Shown in pieces: positions 9,124 through 39,084 of a stretch of DNA of 49,704 bases; position 1 is the stretch's first letter; each line of letters begins with the position of its first letter. A program made the translations under genes and the position numbers. The notes under the pieces are model-generated. The model had not been told where the DNA came from. It did no database searches and saw only the letters and a list, made by a program, of their open reading frames with translations. Origin of the DNA: a virus (taxonomy: Duplodnaviria; Heunggongvirae; Uroviricota; Caudoviricetes); the IMG/VR virus record IMGVR_UViG_2703718837_000001; one strand, 5' to 3'.

Positions 9124-12270
<3,147 letters not shown>

Positions 12271-12374
12271 CCAAATTTAAATCTATGAATTACACTAAAG
12301 CAGTATCCACATCAAAAATATATGATTTTTGGGATACAAGTGATAACATTGTTGGGCGTATAGAGGAGCACAAT

Positions 12375-12677
12375 ATGACTAATTATCATTGCATGCCAGA
12401 CCTCAGCCCGGAAGAGATTCGTAAGATCTCTGAAGCAGCCGTGGCGAGTGTCGCTGCAAAAAAAATAGTCACTAACAGCAAGCATATAACTAAAAGTGCA
12501 TCTTTAGCTGGAAAAGTGATGGCTAAACAGGCAAACGTTATCAAGAAACTGTCTGGCACAGGTTCTTCTGCCATTAAAATTAATAAAGCATTTACGGACA
12601 GTGTACTTACGCAAAGCAAAAGTCGAAAATATTTTCAAGAAGCTTTCATACAAGTTCGTAAAACCATCAAGGTTTGA
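12375..12677 (+). CDS. Small protein of unknown function (cargo island)
   Basis: The ORF track gives 12285..12677, but the internal ATG at 12375 has a strong RBS (agaggag, 7 nt upstream). About 100 aa, Lys/Ser/Ala-rich, low GC. Followed by a strong terminator. Confidence 0.5.
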   Translation: MTNYHCMPDLSPEEIRKISEAAVASVAAKKIVTNSKHITKSASLAGKVMAKQANVIKKLSGTGSSAIKINKAFTDSVLTQSKSRKYFQEAFIQVRKTIKV

Positions 12678-12700
12678 TGCTTTCATAAAACATGATTAAT

Positions 12701-12723
12701 GCCCCTTATCGGGGCTTTTTTTT
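12701..12723 (+). terminator. Rho-independent terminator
   Basis: GCCCC-ttatc-GGGGC followed by T8. Confidence 0.85.
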
Positions 12724-12735
12724 GTTTGGTGCGCA

Positions 12736-13437
12736 ATGATTGAACAGCAAAAGCAATGGGTGTTTACTGAATTAGTAAAAGACCCCAATAACATCGAGCA
12801 ACTAATTTCATACACGATTTACAAAGGTTTCAAAAATGAAATAGCCGATAATGCTCGTAAGATGGGCAAGACTGAAGATGAGATCAATGAGGAGTTAGCA
12901 AAATATCACAACTATTGCATTAGTTCTCAAAAGCAATTAGATGTTTTTAGAGATAAAGCTAAAAACACTCTTGACGCTTATATTTTCACCGCTAACCATA
13001 ACATGATGAAACGGTTTAATGCGGAAATTATTAAAATAAAAAACAACTATGATAAAGAACTTGAACTAGCGCAAAAAAAGTTAAAAATTGCCGAAAAAAA
13101 AGCATTAAATAAGCTGTCCAAAGGTGCGGTTCTCTACAGCCAAAAAATTAAAGAGCCAGAGCATCTCTGGGATAAAATCCTTGATTTATTGTGGAGACTT
13201 ATGAAGTTTCTGTTCTCTGGCGTACCTAAACTTTTTGCTACTGCATTTTCTGTTGGTCTAATGTTCACAATTTATACAGCTTTCGACGAAGATGCCACGA
13301 CAGGTTTGAGAAAAGGGCTATATAAAATTGTTGATATGACTGTACCAGGAAAAGATATTCACGAAACCACAGATAATATAACCAATAGTGGCACAGAAAA
13401 AATGTCATCTTCAAATTCCCAAGCGCAGCAAGGATAG
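12736..13437 (+). CDS. Coiled-coil protein with a C-terminal membrane anchor (cargo island; unknown function)
   Basis: 233 aa. The N-terminal 150 aa are helical and Lys/Glu-rich. Hydrophobic stretch LWRLMKFLFSGVPKLFATAFSVGLMFTIYTAF (1-2 TM), then a polar tail. Low GC, weak RBS. Confidence 0.55.
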   Translation: MIEQQKQWVFTELVKDPNNIEQLISYTIYKGFKNEIADNARKMGKTEDEINEELAKYHNYCISSQKQLDVFRDKAKNTLDAYIFTANHNMMKRFNAEIIKIKNNYDKELELAQKKLKIAEKKALNKLSKGAVLYSQKIKEPEHLWDKILDLLWRLMKFLFSGVPKLFATAFSVGLMFTIYTAFDEDATTGLRKGLYKIVDMTVPGKDIHETTDNITNSGTEKMSSSNSQAQQG

Positions 13438-13443
13438 GTGATG

Positions 13444-13872
13444 TTATAAGCCGCGCAGTGATTTCGGCGCGGCAAACGTCTCAATCATCTTTTCCGCGAT
13501 TGCCGACCAGGTGTGACACTGGACCTTTTCAGCATTTTTCACGCGATCAACGCGAGCAATAACCTCATCCCAATCAATCCGCGACTTGATAACCATATGG
13601 TTCACCAAATCCAGGCGATCCGGCGGAAGGCAATCGGGCGGCGTTAATATCAACGCTCCACACATTGCCGCCTCAAGAACAGTTAATCCAAGGCTTTCGG
13701 GATGCGTAACGATAAAAACGTCACTCTTACGCAATTCAGCTGCAAATTCGGTTGCTGGTACCGGCGTCCGTCTGTATGGGGTTACCGATATATTCCCCGG
13801 ATCAATGGTAATCAATCCGTCATCGGTCAACGTTCTGGCCTCATACGGAACGGTCAGACTCTGAAGGTTCAT
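13444..13872 (-). pseudogene. 3' remnant of a GT-B (GT1/GT4-type) glycosyltransferase gene
   Basis: The 142-aa ORF contains only the C-terminal donor-binding region (VFIVTHPESLGLTVLEAAMCGALILTP). The same frame stays open upstream with no start, through the tRNA fragment to about 14072, so the gene is truncated at a recombination junction. Confidence 0.6.
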
Positions 13873-13998
13873 AAGGATACTTAAGGAGTGATCAAAACCA
13901 CTAACATCAAATGCAGCGTGGTCTACAAAAATACGCAGAACATCGTCTGTTTTGGTTTCATCGACGCATGTGCCATACGCCGTACAACTACCAAATAA

Positions 13999-14044
13999 GG
14001 TGTCCCCTACCGGGCTTGAACCGGTGGCTGTGCGATTATGATCC
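13999..14044 (-). tRNA. Truncated tRNA: 3' part only (anticodon-loop region with CAT, T-arm, acceptor 3' strand)
   Basis: Minus strand reads ...GATCATAATCGCACAGCC-ACCGG-TTCAAGC-CCGGT-AGGGGAC-A-CC: canonical T-arm (5-bp stem, TTCAAGC loop) and acceptor strand. No complementary GTCCCCT 5' strand or D-arm upstream, and anticodon-stem pairing fails. P1 carries tRNA genes in this region as I recall. Confidence 0.5.
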
Positions 14045-14168
14045 CTTTGAAAAATAAATGCAGATCTAATAGGTTGTGTTATTTACTCATTGGCACAGAT
14101 TGCCATTACTTATCTAGTTTTAGCCATTTTTACCGCACTTCATCGCTACTAGCCTATGTTTCTTTATG

Positions 14169-15104
14169 TTAGAATGGTACATTGTCATCCATCTCAAAGT
14201 CTGGGGGTGCAACAGATATTCGATGAATTTCATTTCTTTCCATATCCATCATTTGATCCTCCTGCTCCCCATCATCGTACCACGATGAAGTGTCTACCTC
14301 TAAAGCTTCAGATATGACTTCAAATGTTTCAGGAGAGTCTAAGTGAGAAGCCATGTGCAACGTGAACGGATAACTTTCTTCTAGGCTAACCCCATCATTC
14401 CTAGAACCATATTCTTGAGTAACATAGACAGTACCGGAAGCATATATATTGATGTACTCATCATCAATCGACGTGATTCCAAATTCTTCGACTTCAGTGT
14501 AATCTACATACGCATGATTCGCGATAGTCACTAGGTTTTCAGGCATAGAGCTTACCGCCGTGTCAATAACTGCATTTCTAATTTTATCTTCGAGAGTACG
14601 AATTAATTCATCTCTACAAATATGTATACCATTTAGTATTTCTGTAGCGATCTGCAGTATTTGTTTGGCCTTCAGGAAGAACTCTTGAGGTGATGGATGC
14701 ATATATTTCTCTGTTATATGCGTATATTTATTTAAGAAGAAATAAAGCTTAAGCATCTCATCTATTCTTTCATTCGACTCCTCCAGGAACTCTTCCCCCA
14801 AGTACGCATCTGAAATTTTAGCTTGAGAACAGTATTTTAAACGCTGTCTTCTAGATATTTCGTAATGTTCATGTTCTCTCTTATACCACGATGCTTGTAA
14901 TAATTTATCATTCGGAGATTTTTTCTCGATAATATGCTTTATTAGCTCGCGAATTGAAAATGCAAAGTTATGAAAACGTAATGGGTTGCCATGTGATGCA
15001 TAATTTCGCAAACAAGCTGTGAATAATTCTTTTTCAAAATCAGCTTCGAGGTGACTCATAAAATCATTCACAAAATCAAGAGATTGTAGTTTTTTAAGCT
15101 TCAT
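14169..15104 (-). CDS. Orphan 311-aa protein: helical N-domain, beta-rich middle, hyper-acidic linker and an SSB-C-terminal-tip-like end (..PPDFEMDDNVPF)
   Basis: Single long ORF in a very AT-rich segment. The C-terminus is compared from memory with the E. coli SSB tail ..EPPMDFDDDIPF. RNYASH (aa 33-38) resembles an Rx4H motif. No other family recognised. Confidence 0.7.
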   Translation of the reverse strand: MKLKKLQSLDFVNDFMSHLEADFEKELFTACLRNYASHGNPLRFHNFAFSIRELIKHIIEKKSPNDKLLQASWYKREHEHYEISRRQRLKYCSQAKISDAYLGEEFLEESNERIDEMLKLYFFLNKYTHITEKYMHPSPQEFFLKAKQILQIATEILNGIHICRDELIRTLEDKIRNAVIDTAVSSMPENLVTIANHAYVDYTEVEEFGITSIDDEYINIYASGTVYVTQEYGSRNDGVSLEESYPFTLHMASHLDSPETFEVISEALEVDTSSWYDDGEQEDQMMDMERNEIHRISVAPPDFEMDDNVPF

Positions 15105-15927
15105 CGTGTAACCTTATATTCCTGTCTCAGATTTAATATCGGATTCAACCGAATCCTCTTCTTCTAAATTTTAAAGTCGTGTAACATTACAAAATATTCA
15201 AGGTTAAATTGAACATATATCATTGTTATTTAGATGTAAGTATATCTGAGCACTCGTTACAATACCAGAATATTACCATCATTCATCATAAAGTAACTAG
15301 CGAAGGTGTGGCGGAAACGTAAGTAAGTTGTTCTCCAGGTAATTCAATACCTGTTCTTTCTAAATAGCTGCGCGGAATAGTGATCTACTTTCGTCCGCCC
15401 TTGCAGGGCGAGACATTAGGTCGGCGTCCCCTACCTGACCGTGCTGCATCAGGCTTGAGTGTGTTGCCCATATGCAACATACCACACATCAGTAAACGGC
15501 AAGTGTAGTAGTATTAGGCGCAGAAATTTAGTACAGCCCAGAATGCGCCGTAACAATCAATAAACCACTACACCCGCGCCCTGGCTGCAATTCGGTAACA
15601 GGGGATCCCCCCTAGCTTCCAGCGTGATTAGCGCCTTCAGCATGACGGAATATACCCGTAAATACGAGGAACTCTACCCAAAGGCTGTTAAGAACCGGCT
15701 GTTACGCTGAATGAAAAAGGACGTAACAGGTAAGGACGCTGACCAGAAGATGGCCCCTTCTCGTTCATCTGGTTAATCAAACCAGCGCCCTTGCCTGTTA
15801 TGCCTCCTCGTTCCCTAATACACAGACGGGGACAACCCCGTGGTGTCAGGCTTCTTAGGCCGCAACCATCATCAGATCATCGTTTGCATTTACTTTAATG
15901 GTCAGTTTGTGACTGCTCCCCGCCCTG

Positions 15928-17221
15928 TCGGGCGAGGCTTCCCACTTCTCAGGCCACTACCGTCTGTGCGACGGATTTACGCTGGCCTCCATGGGCGGAG
16001 ACGACGAGTCCCGCCGCCTGTAGTTCCAGTATTCCTTTTTGCCGGATGTTGAGTGCCGCATTGATATCGCGGTCGTGCTCTGCTCCACATTCAGGGCATC
16101 GCCAGATGCGTTTATGAAGCGGCATTTCCGGCATTTTGTAACCACAACAATAGCAGGCTTTCGAACTGGCAAACCACTGGTCGAGTTTTACTAGGTGAAC
16201 GCCTTTTTCCGCTGCCTTGTACTCCAGCTTTGTGATGAAGCTATGCCAGCCTGCATCACCTATCGCTCTTGCCAGATTGTGGTTTTTCATCATGTTGGCT
16301 GTTTTCAGCGTCTCGACAATTACCGCTTGGTTTTCGTCAACAATTGCACGAGAGAGCTTGTGTTGAAAATCAGCACGGGCATTAGCCACCCGTTCGTGTA
16401 ACGCTGCCAGACGGATTGTGGCCTTTTTACGATTCGCGCTTCCCTTTTGCTTGCGGGATAAGGCTTTTTGTTTGCGTCGCAGATTACGGCTGGCATTGAT
16501 GAGATGGCGGGGATTTGCAATTTTTACCCCATCAGACTTGATGGCAAAGTGCGATAATCCCATATCTAGGCCAGTAACTGTTGATATCAACGTGGGTTTT
16601 GCCGGAGCTTCCATGCCATCATCACAGAGAATTGAAGCATAGTATTTCCCCGTTGCTGAACAGGTGATAGTGATGCTTTTCAGCTTTCCATGAAGTTCAC
16701 GGTGAAGGCGTGCTTCTATTAGGGACAGTTTTGGGATTTTGATGGCATTATCCAGCACCTTAATCCCGACACAGTGATAGCTCGATTGTTTTCCGTGTTT
16801 ACGTTTAAACGTCGGGAACCGCGCTTTCAGCTTCGGATTAAAAAAGTTGGAAAATGCCACATCAAGATTAATTACCGCCTGTTGCAACGCAATAGAATCA
16901 TATTCTTTAAGCCATCCATACCTGCGGGATTTCTTTGCCACTGCAAGCAGCGGTTTCAGATCGTTACGCGGACTTAAATTTACTCCATGTCGCTGGTAAG
17001 CATGTTTTTTGATGTGAAGAGCTTTGTTGTACGCAAAGCGCACTGCACCGAACTGGGCATTGAGGTACTCTGCCTGTTCTGGTGTCGGGTAAATGCGTAC
17101 TTTTGTTGCTCTTAACATAGTCACCGCTCATTGATACAGGCTTTTTATGCTAACACCGTAATGATTTTTTTAAAGCCCTGTTGGCTTTTCGCCTTATATA
17201 CCCGCCCGCATTAGGCGAGGG
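15928..17221 (-). mobile_element. Minimal IS200/IS605-type (IS1341-like, tnpB-only) element bounded by similar imperfect palindromes; true ends uncertain
   Basis: ccccgccc-tgtc-gggcgagg (15928-15947, just past the tnpB stop) and acccgccc-gcatta-ggcgaggg (17200-17221, upstream of tnpB) share CCGCCC-N4-6-GGCGAGG in the same orientation. A third copy lies at 15394-15413. Confidence 0.45.
15949..17124 (-). CDS. tnpB: TnpB (IS200/IS605-family OrfB, RNA-guided RuvC nuclease), apparently intact
   Basis: 391 aa. N-terminal KVRIYPTPEQ...FGAVRFAYN (OrfB_IS605 helix), RuvC-I GLDMG, RuvC-II VIVETL, zinc ribbon CYCCG...CPECG, RuvC-III HDRDINAALNI. No adjacent tnpA. Confidence 0.9.
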   Translation of the reverse strand: MTMLRATKVRIYPTPEQAEYLNAQFGAVRFAYNKALHIKKHAYQRHGVNLSPRNDLKPLLAVAKKSRRYGWLKEYDSIALQQAVINLDVAFSNFFNPKLKARFPTFKRKHGKQSSYHCVGIKVLDNAIKIPKLSLIEARLHRELHGKLKSITITCSATGKYYASILCDDGMEAPAKPTLISTVTGLDMGLSHFAIKSDGVKIANPRHLINASRNLRRKQKALSRKQKGSANRKKATIRLAALHERVANARADFQHKLSRAIVDENQAVIVETLKTANMMKNHNLARAIGDAGWHSFITKLEYKAAEKGVHLVKLDQWFASSKACYCCGYKMPEMPLHKRIWRCPECGAEHDRDINAALNIRQKGILELQAAGLVVSAHGGQRKSVAQTVVA

Positions 17222-17273
17222 TTTACGGCGTTTTTCGCTAAACCGCCGCAAAGTCGCTAACCATGACGAAACC

Positions 17274-17302
17274 TCTGAAAAAAATGCCCACCCGAAGATG
17301 GG
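17274..17302 (-). terminator. Rho-independent terminator downstream of dmt
   Basis: Minus strand reads GCCCA-tcttcggg-TGGGC followed by T7. Confidence 0.7.
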
Positions 17303-17488
17303 CAAACTGGATGGAAGCTCGTTACGCACTTCGGAGTTGCCTCTTAGGCGCATGGTCAACCTGGCAACTCGGTGGTTTGTCTGGGAGGACTAGGCCCAGC
17401 CATGCTTACCGCCGCGCCTGTCGCGGCTAACAGCTAAATCGCTCTAAAAATCACGATTCATTGATTCGATATTACACTAATAAATTTA

Positions 17489-20400
17489 TTATAGCAATAT
17501 TGCTATAACGTCATGAGCAACACCACGAGTGTCTCCCTTACAAGACACAGAACGTCTGGCAAAAAGAGGTTCCACTCTGAAGCCACTGTCCTGATAAAGT
17601 TCTCTGATGTTTGGCGCGCCACTGTTAGTAATGAGAACCTTTGCACCTCGGCGATGAGCATCCGTCAACAGAGACACCAGGCGTTTTTGCTCTTCAAACT
17701 TAAAGTCATGACCGGAATAGTTCGTGAACCCCTCTGTATTGGGGAGCGGTTCATACGGCGGATCGCAAAAGATGACATCTCCTTCTCCGGCAGCTTCAAT
17801 CACCGCTGCAAAATCACCGCATACAAACTCAGACCGCCCTTCCGCACCGAGGAAGGCTTCCATCTCCTGTAATGGAAAATGCGTAGACTTATACTTCCCA
17901 TACCCGACATTGAACTCACCGGCCTGGTTGTAGCGCGTCAATCCATTAAAACAATGTCGGTTCAGGAACAAAAACGCCGCTGCGCGATGTAAATCATCAT
18001 AGACTTGTTTGTTAAACGCATTCCGTACTGCCAGGAATCCCTCCTGGGTGTTGTAGTCCAGGAAGAAACGATGTGCCAGAGTGATAAGTGAATGCGCCTC
18101 GCGTTGCAGAGTCTTGTAAAAGTTAATCAGGTCAGCATTCACATCATTTAGCAGATTTTCCTGATATCCGGCATTCATGAAGACAGCTCCGCCACCAACG
18201 AAAGGTTCAATCAGGCGCTTCCCTTCTGGCAAATAGCGAAAGATTTGTTCCAGAACACCAAATTTTCCACCAGCCCATTTGAATATGGGCCGTTCGAATT
18301 CTGCCGCTGGTTTAACCTTTCGCTCTTTTGTTTCACTCCCTTCTTTTTGCCGACATGCAGCCTTAGTAATCCGATCGCCAATCCAGCGCATTACTGGTAT
18401 TGCCATACTATTTCCGATCGCTTTGTAACGCGGTCCGTCAGCTGCAAGCATCGCGGCCTCTTCTTCGTTTAAATCAGGATAGTTATTGCGAAGGTATGCT
18501 AGTTCATCTGAAGAAACTTTTTTACGCTTTCCCGTAGGGATCAACGTATGCCAATCAGGAAAACCTTGCAGCCTTTCACATTCGACAGGGGTAAGACGGC
18601 GCATTCTATCGTCGCCGAGCAATACAATTGGTGCTTCATGGTTACATGTCAAAGTTGGTGCCGAATTATCGGTTTTTATCTCAGCCCCTCCTTGCCCATG
18701 TGCCATGGCAATTATGTTTGTATCATCGCAAGATCTGATAGCGATGTTTGAAGTATATCTGGTAGTTTCCTTCCCCTCGCCTCTGCTCGGCGCAATATCC
18801 CGGCGCTCGCCTTCGAACTCAAAAAGTACCGTTGCGGGATCGAGGTCTGTTCGAGCACTTGCGACAACAAACACGCGTCGGCGTCGTTGTGCCACTCCGA
18901 AGTATTGGGCATCAAGGATTCTCCAGGCCACCTTTCGCTGCGGTCCATAAATACAACCACACTGCGGCCACTTTGGAGCATGGCAACCGGTTTTGCCATC
19001 CCACCGCCAGAACGCGTTACTTTTTCCTGATTCAGGTCGATCACCTGGTTCAAATGGCGCATCTTCTCCAGCCAATCCGGCAAGGAAACATCCGAAGGCG
19101 TTATCTGCCGATGACAAGACCCCTGGGACATTTTCCCAGACGATAACGGCTGGTTTGAGAAATGACTCAGCCCGTTTGTCGTCAATTGCATTTGCAAGCT
19201 CCACATACTTTAAAGTTAGCGCGCCACGCTCATCATCAAGCCCACCACGTAATCCAGCGATACTGAATGCCTGACAGTTATGGACCACCGCACCATTGAG
19301 GATATAGGAATGATCACCTTCGACTTCTATGTTGTATACAGTATCTAGGCCTACCGATTTAAACTCTTTGACTGTTCGTAAAAGCATTCCATGAGCCAAT
19401 CTTGATTTACGTGACAATTTCTGCGGGCAGATTGTTACCTGATAATAATTCCGTTGATTTACCACGCGATCCTCAATCACTTTTTTGGGCTCAACTTCAA
19501 TAAAGCTGACCGAAGAAACATAACCACAAGTCTGTGACAACTCCGCAACGCCCCAAGCAAGCGCAGGACTAACACTATTAATTCTAAATCCCGCTTTACC
19601 ACTTGGTGTCCCATCAGTATCAAGATAGCCTTGTAAAAACACATGACGCAATGGATGCGACATCACCCATGCAGGGATACGCTTAGCATGGCTTAACTCG
19701 CCAAAATGTTCATTAAGCCAATTGGCATAACACGTATCATTCAAGGTTACTTTGATGCTCCCTCGGATTTCGCTTGCCACGGAAAATATGTTTTCTGGTA
19801 TGCGGCAATGAAACTTTCTCAATTTCTGGCAATTTATGCCAAAAACAACCGCCTTCTTAGATTTACCTCTCCATCTCCTAATATATCCATCGCCAACATA
19901 AGCGCCCGCAAGATACATAGCCTGTTCTTCAGACAAGAACCGAGAACAAATATCTGGAGATGCAATATTGAAATTAGTTAGAGCACACCATTGATATCCC
20001 GGCATATCACATGCTGCTCGCCATTCCGGTTCAGACAACAACTCTCTCTTAAAATATGTGCCATTTTTCCGGGTGTTTTGGGCTTTCCACCGAACCGCCA
20101 GGAAGGGATGGTCATTGGTTGTTCTTATACCTAAAGGCTGCCCAACGGCATTAAGTAACCCCGTATTAGCTATTTTTGAACCAACTCTTTTTACTTGTTG
20201 TAACCGCCCGAGATGACTGACTACGTAATCGCCAGGGCAAACATCTTCTATTGGTTTATAACCATTTTTACAAAGAACCATATGCCCCGCGGTAAAACAT
20301 GGTGTCCCTCCCACCAGCACATCAGGGGCTTCAATTTCTCCGGCCTGGACTTTTTGGGCGAGTTTTGTCATGTCGCCAAGGTTCGCGACATGGGGCCAGC

Positions 20401-20530
20401 GGTGCGCAAGAACGGCAGAGGGAAAAGGCTCGATTTCAGCAAACCACGCCGGACGCATACCCAACGGTTCCCATGCAATGCTCGCGGCTTCAATTCCACT
20501 GCAAACAGATCCATAGCACAGCTCTCTCAC
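17489..20530 (-). CDS. dmt: Bifunctional DNA methyltransferase Dmt (N-terminal C5-cytosine MTase plus C-terminal Dam-like N6-adenine MTase) interrupted by an intein
   Basis: C5 motifs: I ([11 protein letters not shown]), IV (GGTP/CQAFS, split), VI (ENVPG), VIII (QRRRRVF), X (GNSMAIPV). Dam part: [21 protein letters not shown]. 1013 aa including the 341-aa insertion. Confidence 0.92.
19277..20299 (-). other. Intein (Hint domain plus LAGLIDADG homing endonuclease), Dmt residues 78-418
   Basis: Starts with CFTAGHMV (block A); TNDHPF (block B); [11 protein letters not shown] and [10 protein letters not shown] (two LAGLIDADG motifs); [21 protein letters not shown] followed by Cys (blocks F/G plus the +1 nucleophile). 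Excision recreates GGTPCQAFS. Confidence 0.9.
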
Positions 20531-21453: not shown

Positions 21454-21781
21454 CCACAGAAAGCTCGTCTTTGTAGAAGAAGGTCAGGTTATGGCACCCC
21501 CTCGTTTGAGCGTATGAGCTGGGACCAATTTCGTTCTTCCAGACAAATGGCTTCAGATCCGTACGGCGAAGCATAAAAACGCAATTTGTTCCGCTCTGAT
21601 TCCCAATGAGGCAAAAGCCTTCTTTCACCTTGATAGCCTGCAAGTTGTCGAGTTCACCGCTGGTTACACGGCTATCGAACTCCTTGCGGCTTATTAGCTC
21701 CATCTGCATCTGACGACTCCAAACAAATGCCCATTGAAGGGCGATGGCTGAATGGTACCGAAAACACGATATAAAAAACAA
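21425..21781 (-). CDS. Small protein upstream of hrdC (position of P1 uhr)
   Basis: 118-aa ORF. The internal start at 21709 (MQMELISRK) has GGAG 8 nt upstream and leaves room for the operator/promoter at 21781-21797, so the real product is probably about 95 aa. Confidence 0.55.
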
Positions 21782-21797
21782 TATTTATTAGAGCAAT
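21781..21797 (-). promoter_or_regulatory. C1 operator
   Basis: Reverse complement of atatttattagagcaat = ATTGCTCTAATAAATAT, 16/17 to consensus. Lies between the divergent uhr-hrdC-dmt operon and the PAAR-like operon. Confidence 0.75.
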
Positions 21798-36951: not shown

Positions 36952-36968
36952 AAAATTATTAGAGCAAA
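36952..36968 (-). promoter_or_regulatory. C1 operator Op53-equivalent at the kilA-repL promoter
   Basis: Reverse complement = TTTGCTCTAATAATTTT, about 70 nt upstream of the kilA ATG. Confidence 0.7.
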
Positions 36969-39067: not shown

Positions 39068-39084
39068 AAATTTATTAGAGCAGG
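39068..39084 (-). promoter_or_regulatory. C1 operator Op51-equivalent at the immI promoter
   Basis: Reverse complement = CCTGCTCTAATAAATTT (15/17), upstream of c4-icd-ant. Confidence 0.7.

Follow-up and report, generated by a model that had tools for sequence, protein, structure and literature searches.

The DNA studied here is a stretch of 49,704 nucleotides from the IMG/VR virus record IMGVR_UViG_2703718837_000001 (the window, to which all coordinates refer unless stated otherwise). It belongs to a P1/P7-like phage-plasmid and carries, between gene 5 and dmt at positions 12271 to 17488, an interval of 5,218 nt whose gene content differs from that of P1. An earlier note on this DNA, made from the letters without database searches, had described the interval as a single 5.2-kb mosaic cargo island. 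We consider it likely, with good confidence, that the interval is instead the P1 ban-operon region itself after at least four independent events, and not one imported island. A known variable region would have been reshaped by ordinary processes, namely the exchange of a cassette, the integration of a phage followed by a deletion, a second deletion, and the insertion of an insertion sequence (IS). Two features stand at the center of this reading: a fragment of the P1 tRNA gene trnI, which is best understood as one attachment site of a coliphage 186-like prophage, and beside it an intact gene for a predicted nuclease of 311 amino acids (aa), the surviving cargo of that prophage.

Over positions 11000–19000, the window is 99.3% identical to the IncY plasmid of E. 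coli ETEC1737 (CP122779) at full length, and about a dozen further plasmids cover at least 98% of this segment. Within the GenBank phage collection, coverage of the segment by P1-type phages (P1, P7, and relatives) is just 46–48%. The flanks are those of a P1-like ban-operon region, with 95–99% identity to P1/P7. On the left, window 11000–12251 with genes 6 and 5 corresponds to positions 1001–2252 of our P1 reference segment (L002) at 99% identity with both P1 and P7; homology to P1 stops at 12251, 19 nt before the stop codon of the baseplate gene 5 (11638–12270, plus strand). On the right, dmt occupies 17489–20530 on the minus strand and encodes 1013 aa. In the P1 annotation (NC_005856), gene 5 is followed by dbn, ban, trnI, tciC, tciB, tciA, upl, plp, trnT, and trnA, then by a dicF-like region, the promoter Pban with the bivalent C1 operator Oban, and dmt; the P7 layout is the same apart from details. 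The earlier note had given this map correctly, and alignment to P1 and P7 agrees with it that the canonical gene content is different at this position.

Its further statement that no P1 gene of the segment can be recognized does not hold. A local blastn comparison against P1 assigns 1175 of the 5218 nt to P1, as remnants of dbn, trnI, the ban-operon leader, and the dicF-like/Pban region, all of which keep P1 order and orientation. The same comparison reveals no homology to ban in the interval, and ARAGORN finds no tRNA gene in the entire window, so that the set of ban with trnI, trnT, and trnA is not present. Base composition had been described as low, which is borne out for the inserted parts: their GC content is 0.35–0.40 overall (0.359 at 12252–13450, 0.365 in the 311-aa gene, and 0.346 in the stretch after that gene) vs. 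0.49–0.50 in the backbone, while the P1-derived parts lie at 0.49–0.51. The open reading frames (ORFs) listed by the earlier note were all found at their places.

Evidence on how the interval came about is provided by related plasmids. We examined the 482 plasmids in PLSDB that carry the gene 6/5 flank, which is the set meant in all PLSDB counts below. The plasmids AP024520 and CP057257 (L100, L101) agree with the window in the dbn remnant, the junction of the ban deletion, the trnI fragment, the nuclease module, and the leader, but lack both the IS and the low-GC cassette that fills 12252–13450 in the window. CP057803 (L102) has the arrangement of these two plus the IS. In E. albertii CP043248 (L103), the cassette lies beside an intact dbn-ban-trnI-tci region. 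Because these variants carry the components separately, we regard the four events as independent. In total, the nuclease module occurs in 24 of the 482 plasmids (about 5%), the cassette in 17, and the entire arrangement in 12.

A swap of the ban/tRNA/tci segment for a 5.2-kb mosaic island in one step has in its favor that the 12 best PLSDB matches hold the entire arrangement at 99% identity or more, and the identical nuclease protein recurs in 583 blocks of an assembly collection, mostly on contigs of 20–200 kb. A one-step swap is nevertheless highly improbable in our view, as plasmids with single components or partial sets and identical junctions exist (L100–L103) and as the 1175 nt of P1 sequence are interleaved with the foreign parts in P1 order.

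One of the deletions is seen at 13960–13961, where P1 L002 2837–4930 is missing. Up to this junction, 13444–13959 (minus strand) contains a pseudogene fragment of dbn, the P1 glycosyltransferase gene; 13451–13959 corresponds to L002 2328–2836 at 95% identity and represents the last 509 nt at the 3' end of the gene. From the first ATG at 13872, an ORF of 142 aa can be read (13444–13872), Pfam Glycos_transf_1 covers the C-terminal part, and phrog_2518 is matched at positions 190–330 of 332. At the junction 13960/13961, which is identical in L100, L101, and L102, dbn has lost its 5' half, ban is missing completely, and the larger part of the spacer between ban and trnI is gone. A separate deletion event would thus have removed ban together with the 5' half of dbn. 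As had been noticed before, the frame of the glycosyltransferase C-terminus runs on into the tRNA 3' half; it is open there, though it has no start codon.

Directly beyond the junction, 13962–14041 (minus strand) aligns to P1 L002 4931–5010 with 87.5% identity and is composed of 36 nt of the P1 spacer downstream of trnI and the 3' 44 nt of trnI, spanning the gene from the anticodon loop to the acceptor end. The adjoining segment 14042–14168 (minus strand) contains decayed Int arm-type sites. It matches, at 81%, the stretch between the nuclease gene and the tRNA-Ile core of a 186-like prophage of Klebsiella aerogenes (L007), as well as the annotated attP region of phage 186. The similarity extends past the nuclease gene on both sides: window 13999–15377 is 81% identical to the end of this prophage, including the 3' end of int. 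In 186-like prophages, the nuclease gene is followed by an arm of 125 nt and then by CTCATAATCGCTTGGTCGCTGGTTCAAGTCCAGCAGGGGCCACCA, the 3' half of a tRNA-Ile gene; ARAGORN reports neither a tRNA nor a tmRNA gene at these prophage ends. In our alignment of the two sequence types (A2), the prophages pass from the arm through CTCATAATCGC into a non-P1 3' half of tRNA-Ile, and the window passes from the same arm through TCATAATCGC into a trnI 3' half of the P1 type, behind which the P1 spacer begins. It is within the 10-nt TCATAATCGC of the anticodon loop that the sequence changes from phage type to P1 type.

This position can be compared with the annotation of phage 186 (NC_001317), which lists int, a small ORF, sites for Int, IHF, and Apl, and a truncated tRNA-Ile shared with attB, the 3' end of ileY; the predicted crossover is placed at the int-proximal end of the tRNA-Ile core. 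On the expected side of the window junction, a remnant of a 186/P2-type tyrosine integrase gene was identified at 15122–15564 (minus strand). The last 74 residues (about 260–333) are encoded at 15122–15372 with two stop codons and a frameshift, and a further 12 residues (252–263) at 15529–15564. The pseudogene was found by tblastn with the integrases of the 186-like prophages L007, L008, and L010 (E = 3e-17) and also matches the int gene of phage 186, and RefSeq labels a 'site-specific integrase' at the same place in the sister plasmid NZ_CP020936. Taken together, the locus combines a tRNA-Ile2 3'-half core, a switch of sequence type at the annotated crossover, and an adjacent 186/P2-type arm with its integrase gene, the latter with stops and a frameshift.

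Judged by these features, the trnI fragment forms the attB-derived half of a hybrid attR, which in the simplest reading goes back to the site-specific entry of a 186-like phage into trnI of P1. Phage 186 integrates at ileY and ileX (PMC3448106), and P1 trnI is annotated as 89% identical to ileX (NC_005856). Accordingly worded as a sequence of steps, a 186-type (P2-like) temperate phage would have entered trnI, the tRNA-Ile2 gene of P1 and homologue of its attB ileX/ileY, by means of its tyrosine integrase. A later deletion would have started within int and extended across the remaining prophage and its second att junction up to P1 L002 6682, so that trnI lost its 5' half and tciCBA, upl, plp, trnT, and trnA disappeared. 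Of the prophage, one intact cargo gene and a decaying piece of the integrase gene would have stayed, together with the hybrid attR. The end of the prophage/trnI/tci/upl/plp/trnT/trnA deletion is marked by the junction 15573/15574, from which a remnant of the P1 ban-operon leader continues (15574–15908, minus strand; L002 6683–7052) with 82% identity to P1 and 88% to phage D6. The earlier description of a tRNA recombination scar was therefore right in recognizing a genuine tRNA 3' remnant, while the alignment A2 and the attP of phage 186 show that it is not a generic scar; its reading as a 186-type attR inside P1 is new here.

Several points weigh against this reconstruction. In PLSDB, no P1-like plasmid with an intact 186-like prophage or an attL junction was found, and the integration is therefore deduced from one junction and what is left of the integrase gene. 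Several positions of the trnI fragment deviate from P1 trnI (87.5% identity over 80 nt) and the leader is just 82% identical to P1, which means that part of the segment may stem from a divergent P1-like lineage and not from P1 proper. Similarly, no direct donor of the cassette was found, the nearest outside relatives being about 50% identical. Furthermore, the events are ordered on the basis of variants that exist today, and recombination among lineages could have shuffled them. The single large PLSDB hit that might have served as an intermediate, CP058189, was rejected since it carries chromosomal-type genes (DnaJ and the type VI secretion protein Hcp) and no P1 genes. When complete E. coli genomes were searched for a closer donor of the nuclease module on a chromosome, the matches were limited to integrase and tRNA-Ile fragments and a 172-nt element, which is described below.

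The missing attL junction and intermediate would also suit an explanation in which the tRNA fragment and the truncated genes are scars of illegitimate or IS-mediated recombination, and in which the nuclease gene was brought in by some other mobile element. The region does experience IS activity, with IS21 and IS3 insertions in sister plasmids. Against this explanation, the change from phage to P1 sequence lies inside the 10-nt TCATAATCGC, where the crossover region of phage 186 is annotated, and the integrase remnant is located on the expected side. We therefore give this explanation very little weight and retain site-specific integration of a 186-like phage.

The cargo gene of this phage (14169–15104, minus strand) encodes an intact predicted nuclease of 311 aa that matches Pfam pP_pnuc_1 and pP_pnuc_2 (E about 1e-34 each) as well as the PADLOC model Aga_Nuclease (2e-62). 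Pfam describes both families as 'predicted pPIWI-associating nuclease'. Near the N-terminus, the protein carries the motif R33-N-Y-A-S-H38, in which R33 and N34, like some other residues of the protein, do not vary among 40 sequences, with a conservation of at least 90% for H38; RNYASH has the form of the Rx4-6H motif of HEPN proteins. The C-terminus ends in ...DFEMDDNVPF (DDNVPF at 14172–14189; tail peptide PPDFEMDDNVPF) and resembles the C-terminal tip of the single-stranded DNA-binding protein (SSB). The earlier note had singled it out as an orphan with an SSB tip, which is confirmed, and no other ORF in the window ends in an SSB-type tip.

A database search divides the homologues into two length classes, 308–316 aa in Enterobacterales and 277 aa in other Gammaproteobacteria. 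Members of the long class end, after a variable acidic linker, in DDNVPF, DESTPF, DDSPPF, DDDAPF, DDDMPF, DEEIPF, and similar peptides; all 14 long-form tails compared have an acidic stretch followed by a final F, and 12 of them end in PF. The short class terminates at ...DTSSWYE and has no tail. An AlphaFold2 (AF2) model with a predicted local distance difference test (pLDDT) score of 85.8 consists of a helical domain, a domain with a three-stranded curved sheet, and a disordered tail from residue 294, with pLDDT < 50 over residues 294–311. The tail thus has the makeup of an SSB tip, an acidic run and a PF end behind a disordered and variable linker.

The genomic contexts of the two classes differ as well. 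Long-form genes in Klebsiella, Enterobacter, and Yersinia chromosomes all close off 186-like prophages, at whose extreme end the nuclease gene follows the lysogenic operon cI-int by just 1–17 nt. The tail-less form (L006 10001–16512; L105 and L106) is a stand-alone gene of defence islands. In P. aeruginosa, it lies beside DSR1 (1277 aa) and PD-Lambda-1; in Shewanella, it is found near genes for CBASS (SMODS and SLATT), a Schlafen/AlbA_2-domain protein, a KAP NTPase, SieB, and H-NS. For P2-like phages, the int-att interval has been described as a minor defence hotspot (PMC13586616). Its cargo varies among the 186-like prophages we inspected: in E. coli SEV4 (L099 1162–3930) it is a 487-aa protein without family match, in Yersinia (L107 3363–5478) the nuclease followed by an Abi_C protein, and in Enterobacter (L010 10001–11755) the nuclease and two small ORFs. 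Neither the window nor the contexts L006–L010 and L105–L108 contain a gene for a DinG helicase or a PIWI protein, which places this clade of nucleases outside the pPIWI-RE triad.

Based on the RNxxxH motif, the 311-aa protein is probably a HEPN-type RNase, with a predicted NTF2-like C-terminal domain. Considering motif and neighborhoods, its most likely role is that of a prophage-borne single-gene toxin for abortive infection (Abi) or defence, and the SSB-like tip may dock it onto proteins that bind SSB tails, or gate it through them. A fully specified version joins these parts into one scheme, in which the gene is a single-gene Abi of 186-like prophages (HEPN RNase, NTF2-like domain, and a switch that mimics the SSB tip) and the cassette at 12252–13450 is a separate module resembling an exclusion or toxin-antitoxin system. 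The tail would then dock the toxin onto the SSB interactome or onto SSB itself, and it would be released or activated when a phage replicates or when one of the phage's proteins competes for SSB tails. We put this complete scheme forward only tentatively and rate it as possible rather than probable.

Some results do not favor the functional assignment. Foldseek and sequence searches of the PDB with the nuclease gave nothing significant. The name of the Pfam families implies a restriction-endonuclease-type partner of pPIWI-RE, which the fold search did not recover. A promoter scan found fewer promoter-like sites than in shuffled sequence and none that is convincing upstream of the nuclease gene. 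Since the gene lies downstream of the C1-repressed Pban in the window, its expression here would depend on read-through or on some other promoter. The same location admits a different role, in which the protein serves the phage that carries it, as an SSB-tip decoy for ExoI, RecQ, PriA, and others, or through recruitment to the replication fork, and hence in anti-defence or takeover. The gene is co-oriented with Pban, so that inducible expression would be possible, and a conserved tip on a variable linker is also what SSB itself has. In the 186-like prophages, however, the nuclease gene belongs to the lysogenic operon, the tail-less form resides in chromosomal defence islands outside of prophages, and a defence hotspot has been described for the int-att slot. 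A service to the carrier is hence unlikely, and we retain a role in defence. With regard to the earlier suggestion of defence, anti-defence, or exclusion cargo, a defence role is plausible for one cargo gene.

With dbn, trnI, and int reduced to pseudogene fragments, and with ban and three tRNA genes lost, one might ask whether the entire interval is unselected, decaying debris that rides on a successful plasmid lineage, the more so as the carrier plasmids are nearly identical and have had little time for decay. Yet the nuclease gene is intact, the ratio of nonsynonymous to synonymous substitution rates (dN/dS) is 0.06 in comparison with the Klebsiella orthologue (81% DNA identity), and the tail motif is conserved across genera. 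These values indicate purifying selection on the 311-aa gene, which is the part of the interval that looks selected. The cassette speaks in the same direction, as its layout is kept in four contexts at about 45–50% protein identity. An interval made up of debris throughout is accordingly very unlikely.

The cassette itself (module A) replaces 75 nt of P1 by 1199 nt of low GC (12252–13450, plus strand). ORF1 is open from 12285; its real start is at 12375, since homologues align from residue 31 onwards, and it thus encodes 100 aa (12375–12677). ORF2 (12736–13437) encodes 233 aa, for which the sequence and the AF2 model predict a helical N-domain, which is conserved, as well as a long helix and a hydrophobic, transmembrane-like segment (FSGVPKLFATAFS...). 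An intrinsic terminator at 12701–12723 separates the two, with the hairpin GCCCCTTATCGGGGC at 12701–12715 and a run of eight T; the order of a small ORF of about 100 aa, a terminator, and a 233-aa ORF had already been recognized. ORF1 and ORF2 match phrog_34496 and phrog_25194, and no Pfam, NCBIfam, or firm PADLOC match was obtained. The candidates PDC-M64B/C and LeoBC were dismissed, as they gave weak matches only (E about 0.004–0.009). The AF2 model is all-helical and found no fold match. A profile search of 1.84 billion representatives returned 211 clusters; the 150 hits listed are all shorter than about 270 aa, and ten distant members that were spot-checked belong to no Pfam family.

More is revealed by the distribution of the pair. 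It was found at 44–52% aa identity directly after the gene-5 homologue in two divergent P1-like elements, L091 from Klebsiella and L093 from E. coli, and in a conjugative element of Dickeya (L092), beside ccdAB and ardC. In all three, a GC-rich hairpin with a T-run separates the homologues of ORF1 and ORF2. Because divergent P1-like relatives carry the cassette at the same position, it probably replaced the 75 bp between gene 5 and dbn by recombination with such a relative. That a terminator consistently separates the gene of a small protein from that of a membrane protein suggests a pair whose stoichiometry is controlled; exclusion or a toxin-antitoxin arrangement are candidates, and both ideas are speculation. 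If this holds true, such a module would be common to P1-like phage-plasmids and conjugative elements. The surroundings of the pair vary: L093 (7001–12727) has the cassette and a 137-aa ORF, no ban, and a dmt of 1095 aa that contains an intein, and L091 (7001–13320) has the cassette, three small ORFs, DnaB, a 232-aa ORF, and a Dmt of 836 aa.

The last component is a tnpB-only element of 1329 bp (15909–17237, minus strand), inserted exactly at P1 L002 7052/7053. It is composed of a right end with the hairpin CGCCCGACAGGGCG (15909–15948), tnpB (15949–17124), and a left end (17125–17237). As had been stated before, tnpB is solitary, and no tnpA accompanies it. TnpB aligns over its full length with ISDra2 TnpB (8BF8/8EXA; E = 3e-79), retains the D, E, and D motifs (GLDMG, VETL, and HDRDINAA) of the RuvC residues, contains helix-turn-helix, OrfB_IS605, and zinc-ribbon (TNB) domains according to Pfam, and passes the cut-off of the NCBIfam model guided_TnpB. 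Window positions 15908 and 17238 are adjacent bases in P1, whose minus-strand site reads GCGGCGGTTTAG followed by AAACTGACCATT. At the empty site, GCGGCGGTTTAG followed by AAACTGACC, the insertion is precise after TTTAG and no bases are duplicated. An independent copy with 91.7% identity in another phage-plasmid (L005) has the same ends and a TTCAG flank, both copies being delimited by ...GGAGCAGTCAC on the right and C(G/A)AAAAA on the left; a solo right end of 38 nt was found elsewhere. Its domains, its insertion 3' of a target motif without duplication, and its conserved ends show the element, as far as can be read from its sequence, to be an ordinary tnpB-only member of the IS200/IS605 family, which would have inserted 3' of TTTAG in the ban leader.

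The hairpin of the right end lies at the 3' side of tnpB, where Rfam gave just the sub-threshold match tmRNA_permuted. From what has been established for TnpB proteins, the guide would be expected to come from the sequence that borders the IS outside its right end, AAACTGACCATTAAAG (15889–15908). AAACTGACCATTAAAG follows TTTAG in every IS-free P1, and together with the TTTAG at the left end (17238–17242) it rebuilds the empty site of P1/P7. An active TnpB, if guided in this way, is predicted to cut, or to home into, co-resident IS-free relatives of P1.

It had been proposed that the interval marks a recombination hotspot at which accessory functions are exchanged. For the slot between trnI and the leader this agrees well with our survey, since about 20 configurations were distinguished at 67 P1-like IMG/VR loci, with contents that comprise the nuclease, two types of TerB/TciA, a protein of 137 aa, an SPFH lipoprotein accompanied by a membrane protein of 78 aa, and insertions of IS21. 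The region has been termed 'highly variable region 7' for tciABC, one of eight such regions of P1-like phage-plasmids (PMC9603915). It does not apply to ban, as 76 of 80 IMG/VR P1-like loci sampled for dbn, ban, and trnI have retained all three. The lineage described here, which is common in animal and human E. coli, lives without the Ban helicase and without any of the three tRNA genes of P1.

Between the nuclease gene and tnpB, about 840 nt (15105–15948) had been taken for structured non-coding DNA. This stretch consists of four parts, namely the decayed integrase gene, an inverted-repeat element of 172 nt, the P1 leader, and the 40-nt right end of the IS. Fold z-scores for the stretch are -3.4 (15105–15573) and -2.6, and an Rfam scan of 11500–18500 with E up to 1 revealed no family at threshold, only sub-threshold tmRNA matches. 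The 172-nt element lies inside the integrase remnant at 15360–15531 and has imperfect terminal inverted repeats of 31 nt (arms 15360–15390 and 15501–15531). It is about 75–78% identical to the unannotated intA-yfjH intergenic region beside ssrA/CP4-57 of E. coli K-12. A wider query gave 610 chromosomal matches, most of which represent the 172-nt element, usually once per genome. The surrounding region 15105–15573, which has the z-score of -3.4 noted above, folds better than shuffled sequence and has no Rfam match. In the leader, a tmRNA-tag-like frame AAUGCAAACGAUGAUCUGAUGAUGGUUGCGGCCUAA, which reads ANDDLMMVAA and a stop, is present at 15855–15946 (minus strand; P1 L002 6999–7103). The Rfam match tmRNA_permuted scores 29.9 bits here and 24.1 in P1, at a gathering score of 47, and ARAGORN reports no tmRNA; with the same weak match in P1, we consider this a curiosity of the P1 leader and not an RNA gene.

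To the right of the IS, P1 sequence resumes at L002 7053 with 95% identity (17238–17498, minus strand). It comprises a match to the dicF-like region, a terminator-like hairpin (17285–17304), and then Pban with a bivalent C1 operator at 17471–17487 and 17482–17498 (1–2 mismatches). Six further matches to the C1-operator consensus with 1–3 mismatches are distributed over the window (3757–3822, 7430–7446, 21781–21797, 36952–36968, and 39068–39084), where 0.39 would be expected by chance for all; this fits an immunity network of the P1 type. The flanking dmt contains an intein of 340 aa (19277–20296, minus strand) with Hint and LAGLIDADG homing endonuclease domains. It is placed in the C5-methyltransferase motif (GGTP/C...HN/CQAFS, slashes marking the borders), at the catalytic cysteine. 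The intein is absent from P1, P7, and the best-matching plasmid CP122779, and present in 133 of the 482 PLSDB plasmids, at 99% identity or more in 129 of them. A full-text literature search found no paper that describes it.

The interval shows base by base how an accessory region of a phage-plasmid is rebuilt. If our reading is correct, one temperate phage used the tRNA gene of another phage as its attachment site, and a stranded 'moron' gene outlived the deletion of its carrier, which would open a route for prophage cargo between unrelated mobile elements. Two candidates for further work emerge, namely the predicted nuclease, with its tail resembling that of SSB, and the membrane cassette of two conserved genes. 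Many deposited plasmids already contain the arrangement, and their annotations give the cargo other than tnpB as hypothetical proteins. The recognition of the conserved nuclease as surviving cargo is new.

Several known systems can be compared with the parts of the interval. With the three-gene pPIWI-RE system (PMC3702460), from which the names of the Pfam families pP_pnuc_1/2 appear to derive, the 311-aa protein shares its strong matches to these families and to Aga_Nuclease. It differs in that no DinG helicase or PIWI gene is nearby in the 10 contexts examined, in lacking a zinc ribbon, in a restriction-endonuclease fold that was not recovered, and in its additional SSB-like tail. From HEPN RNase toxins such as RnlA/LsoA and AbiV (PMC3710099, PMC8266594), it is set apart by the position of the motif near the N-terminus, by the lack of any sequence-level match to a HEPN family, and by a neighborhood in which no antitoxin-like gene is evident.

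ISDra2-type TnpB elements resemble the IS in the full-length alignment of TnpB, in insertion 3' of a pentanucleotide without duplication, and in a subterminal hairpin of the right end; the element described here has no tnpA, and its flank is TTYAG instead of TTGAT. The defence hotspots of P2-like phages (PMC9122126, PMC13586616) likewise hold a single accessory gene between int and att, and the cargo varies (L099, L107). Here, in contrast, the gene is stranded in another mobile element, and its defence role is a prediction from the sequence.

Coliphage 186 (NC_001317; PMC3448106) offers the closest parallel for the junction. In both cases the att core is the 3' half of tRNA-Ile2 from the anticodon loop onwards, arm sites of the Int type adjoin it, int reads towards att, and a cargo slot lies between int and att, which is occupied by Orf69 in 186 and by the 311-aa predicted nuclease here. 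The differences are that attB is provided by another phage, in the form of P1 trnI, and that the integrase gene has become a pseudogene while the rest of the prophage was deleted. Finally, the interval agrees with variable region 7 of P1-like phage-plasmids (PMC9603915) in its position in the ban operon, in the replacement of tciABC by other cargo, and in the low GC content of the inserts. In contrast to that region, the loss extends here to ban, dbn, and three tRNA genes, and the mechanism, integration into trnI and then deletion, has remained legible.

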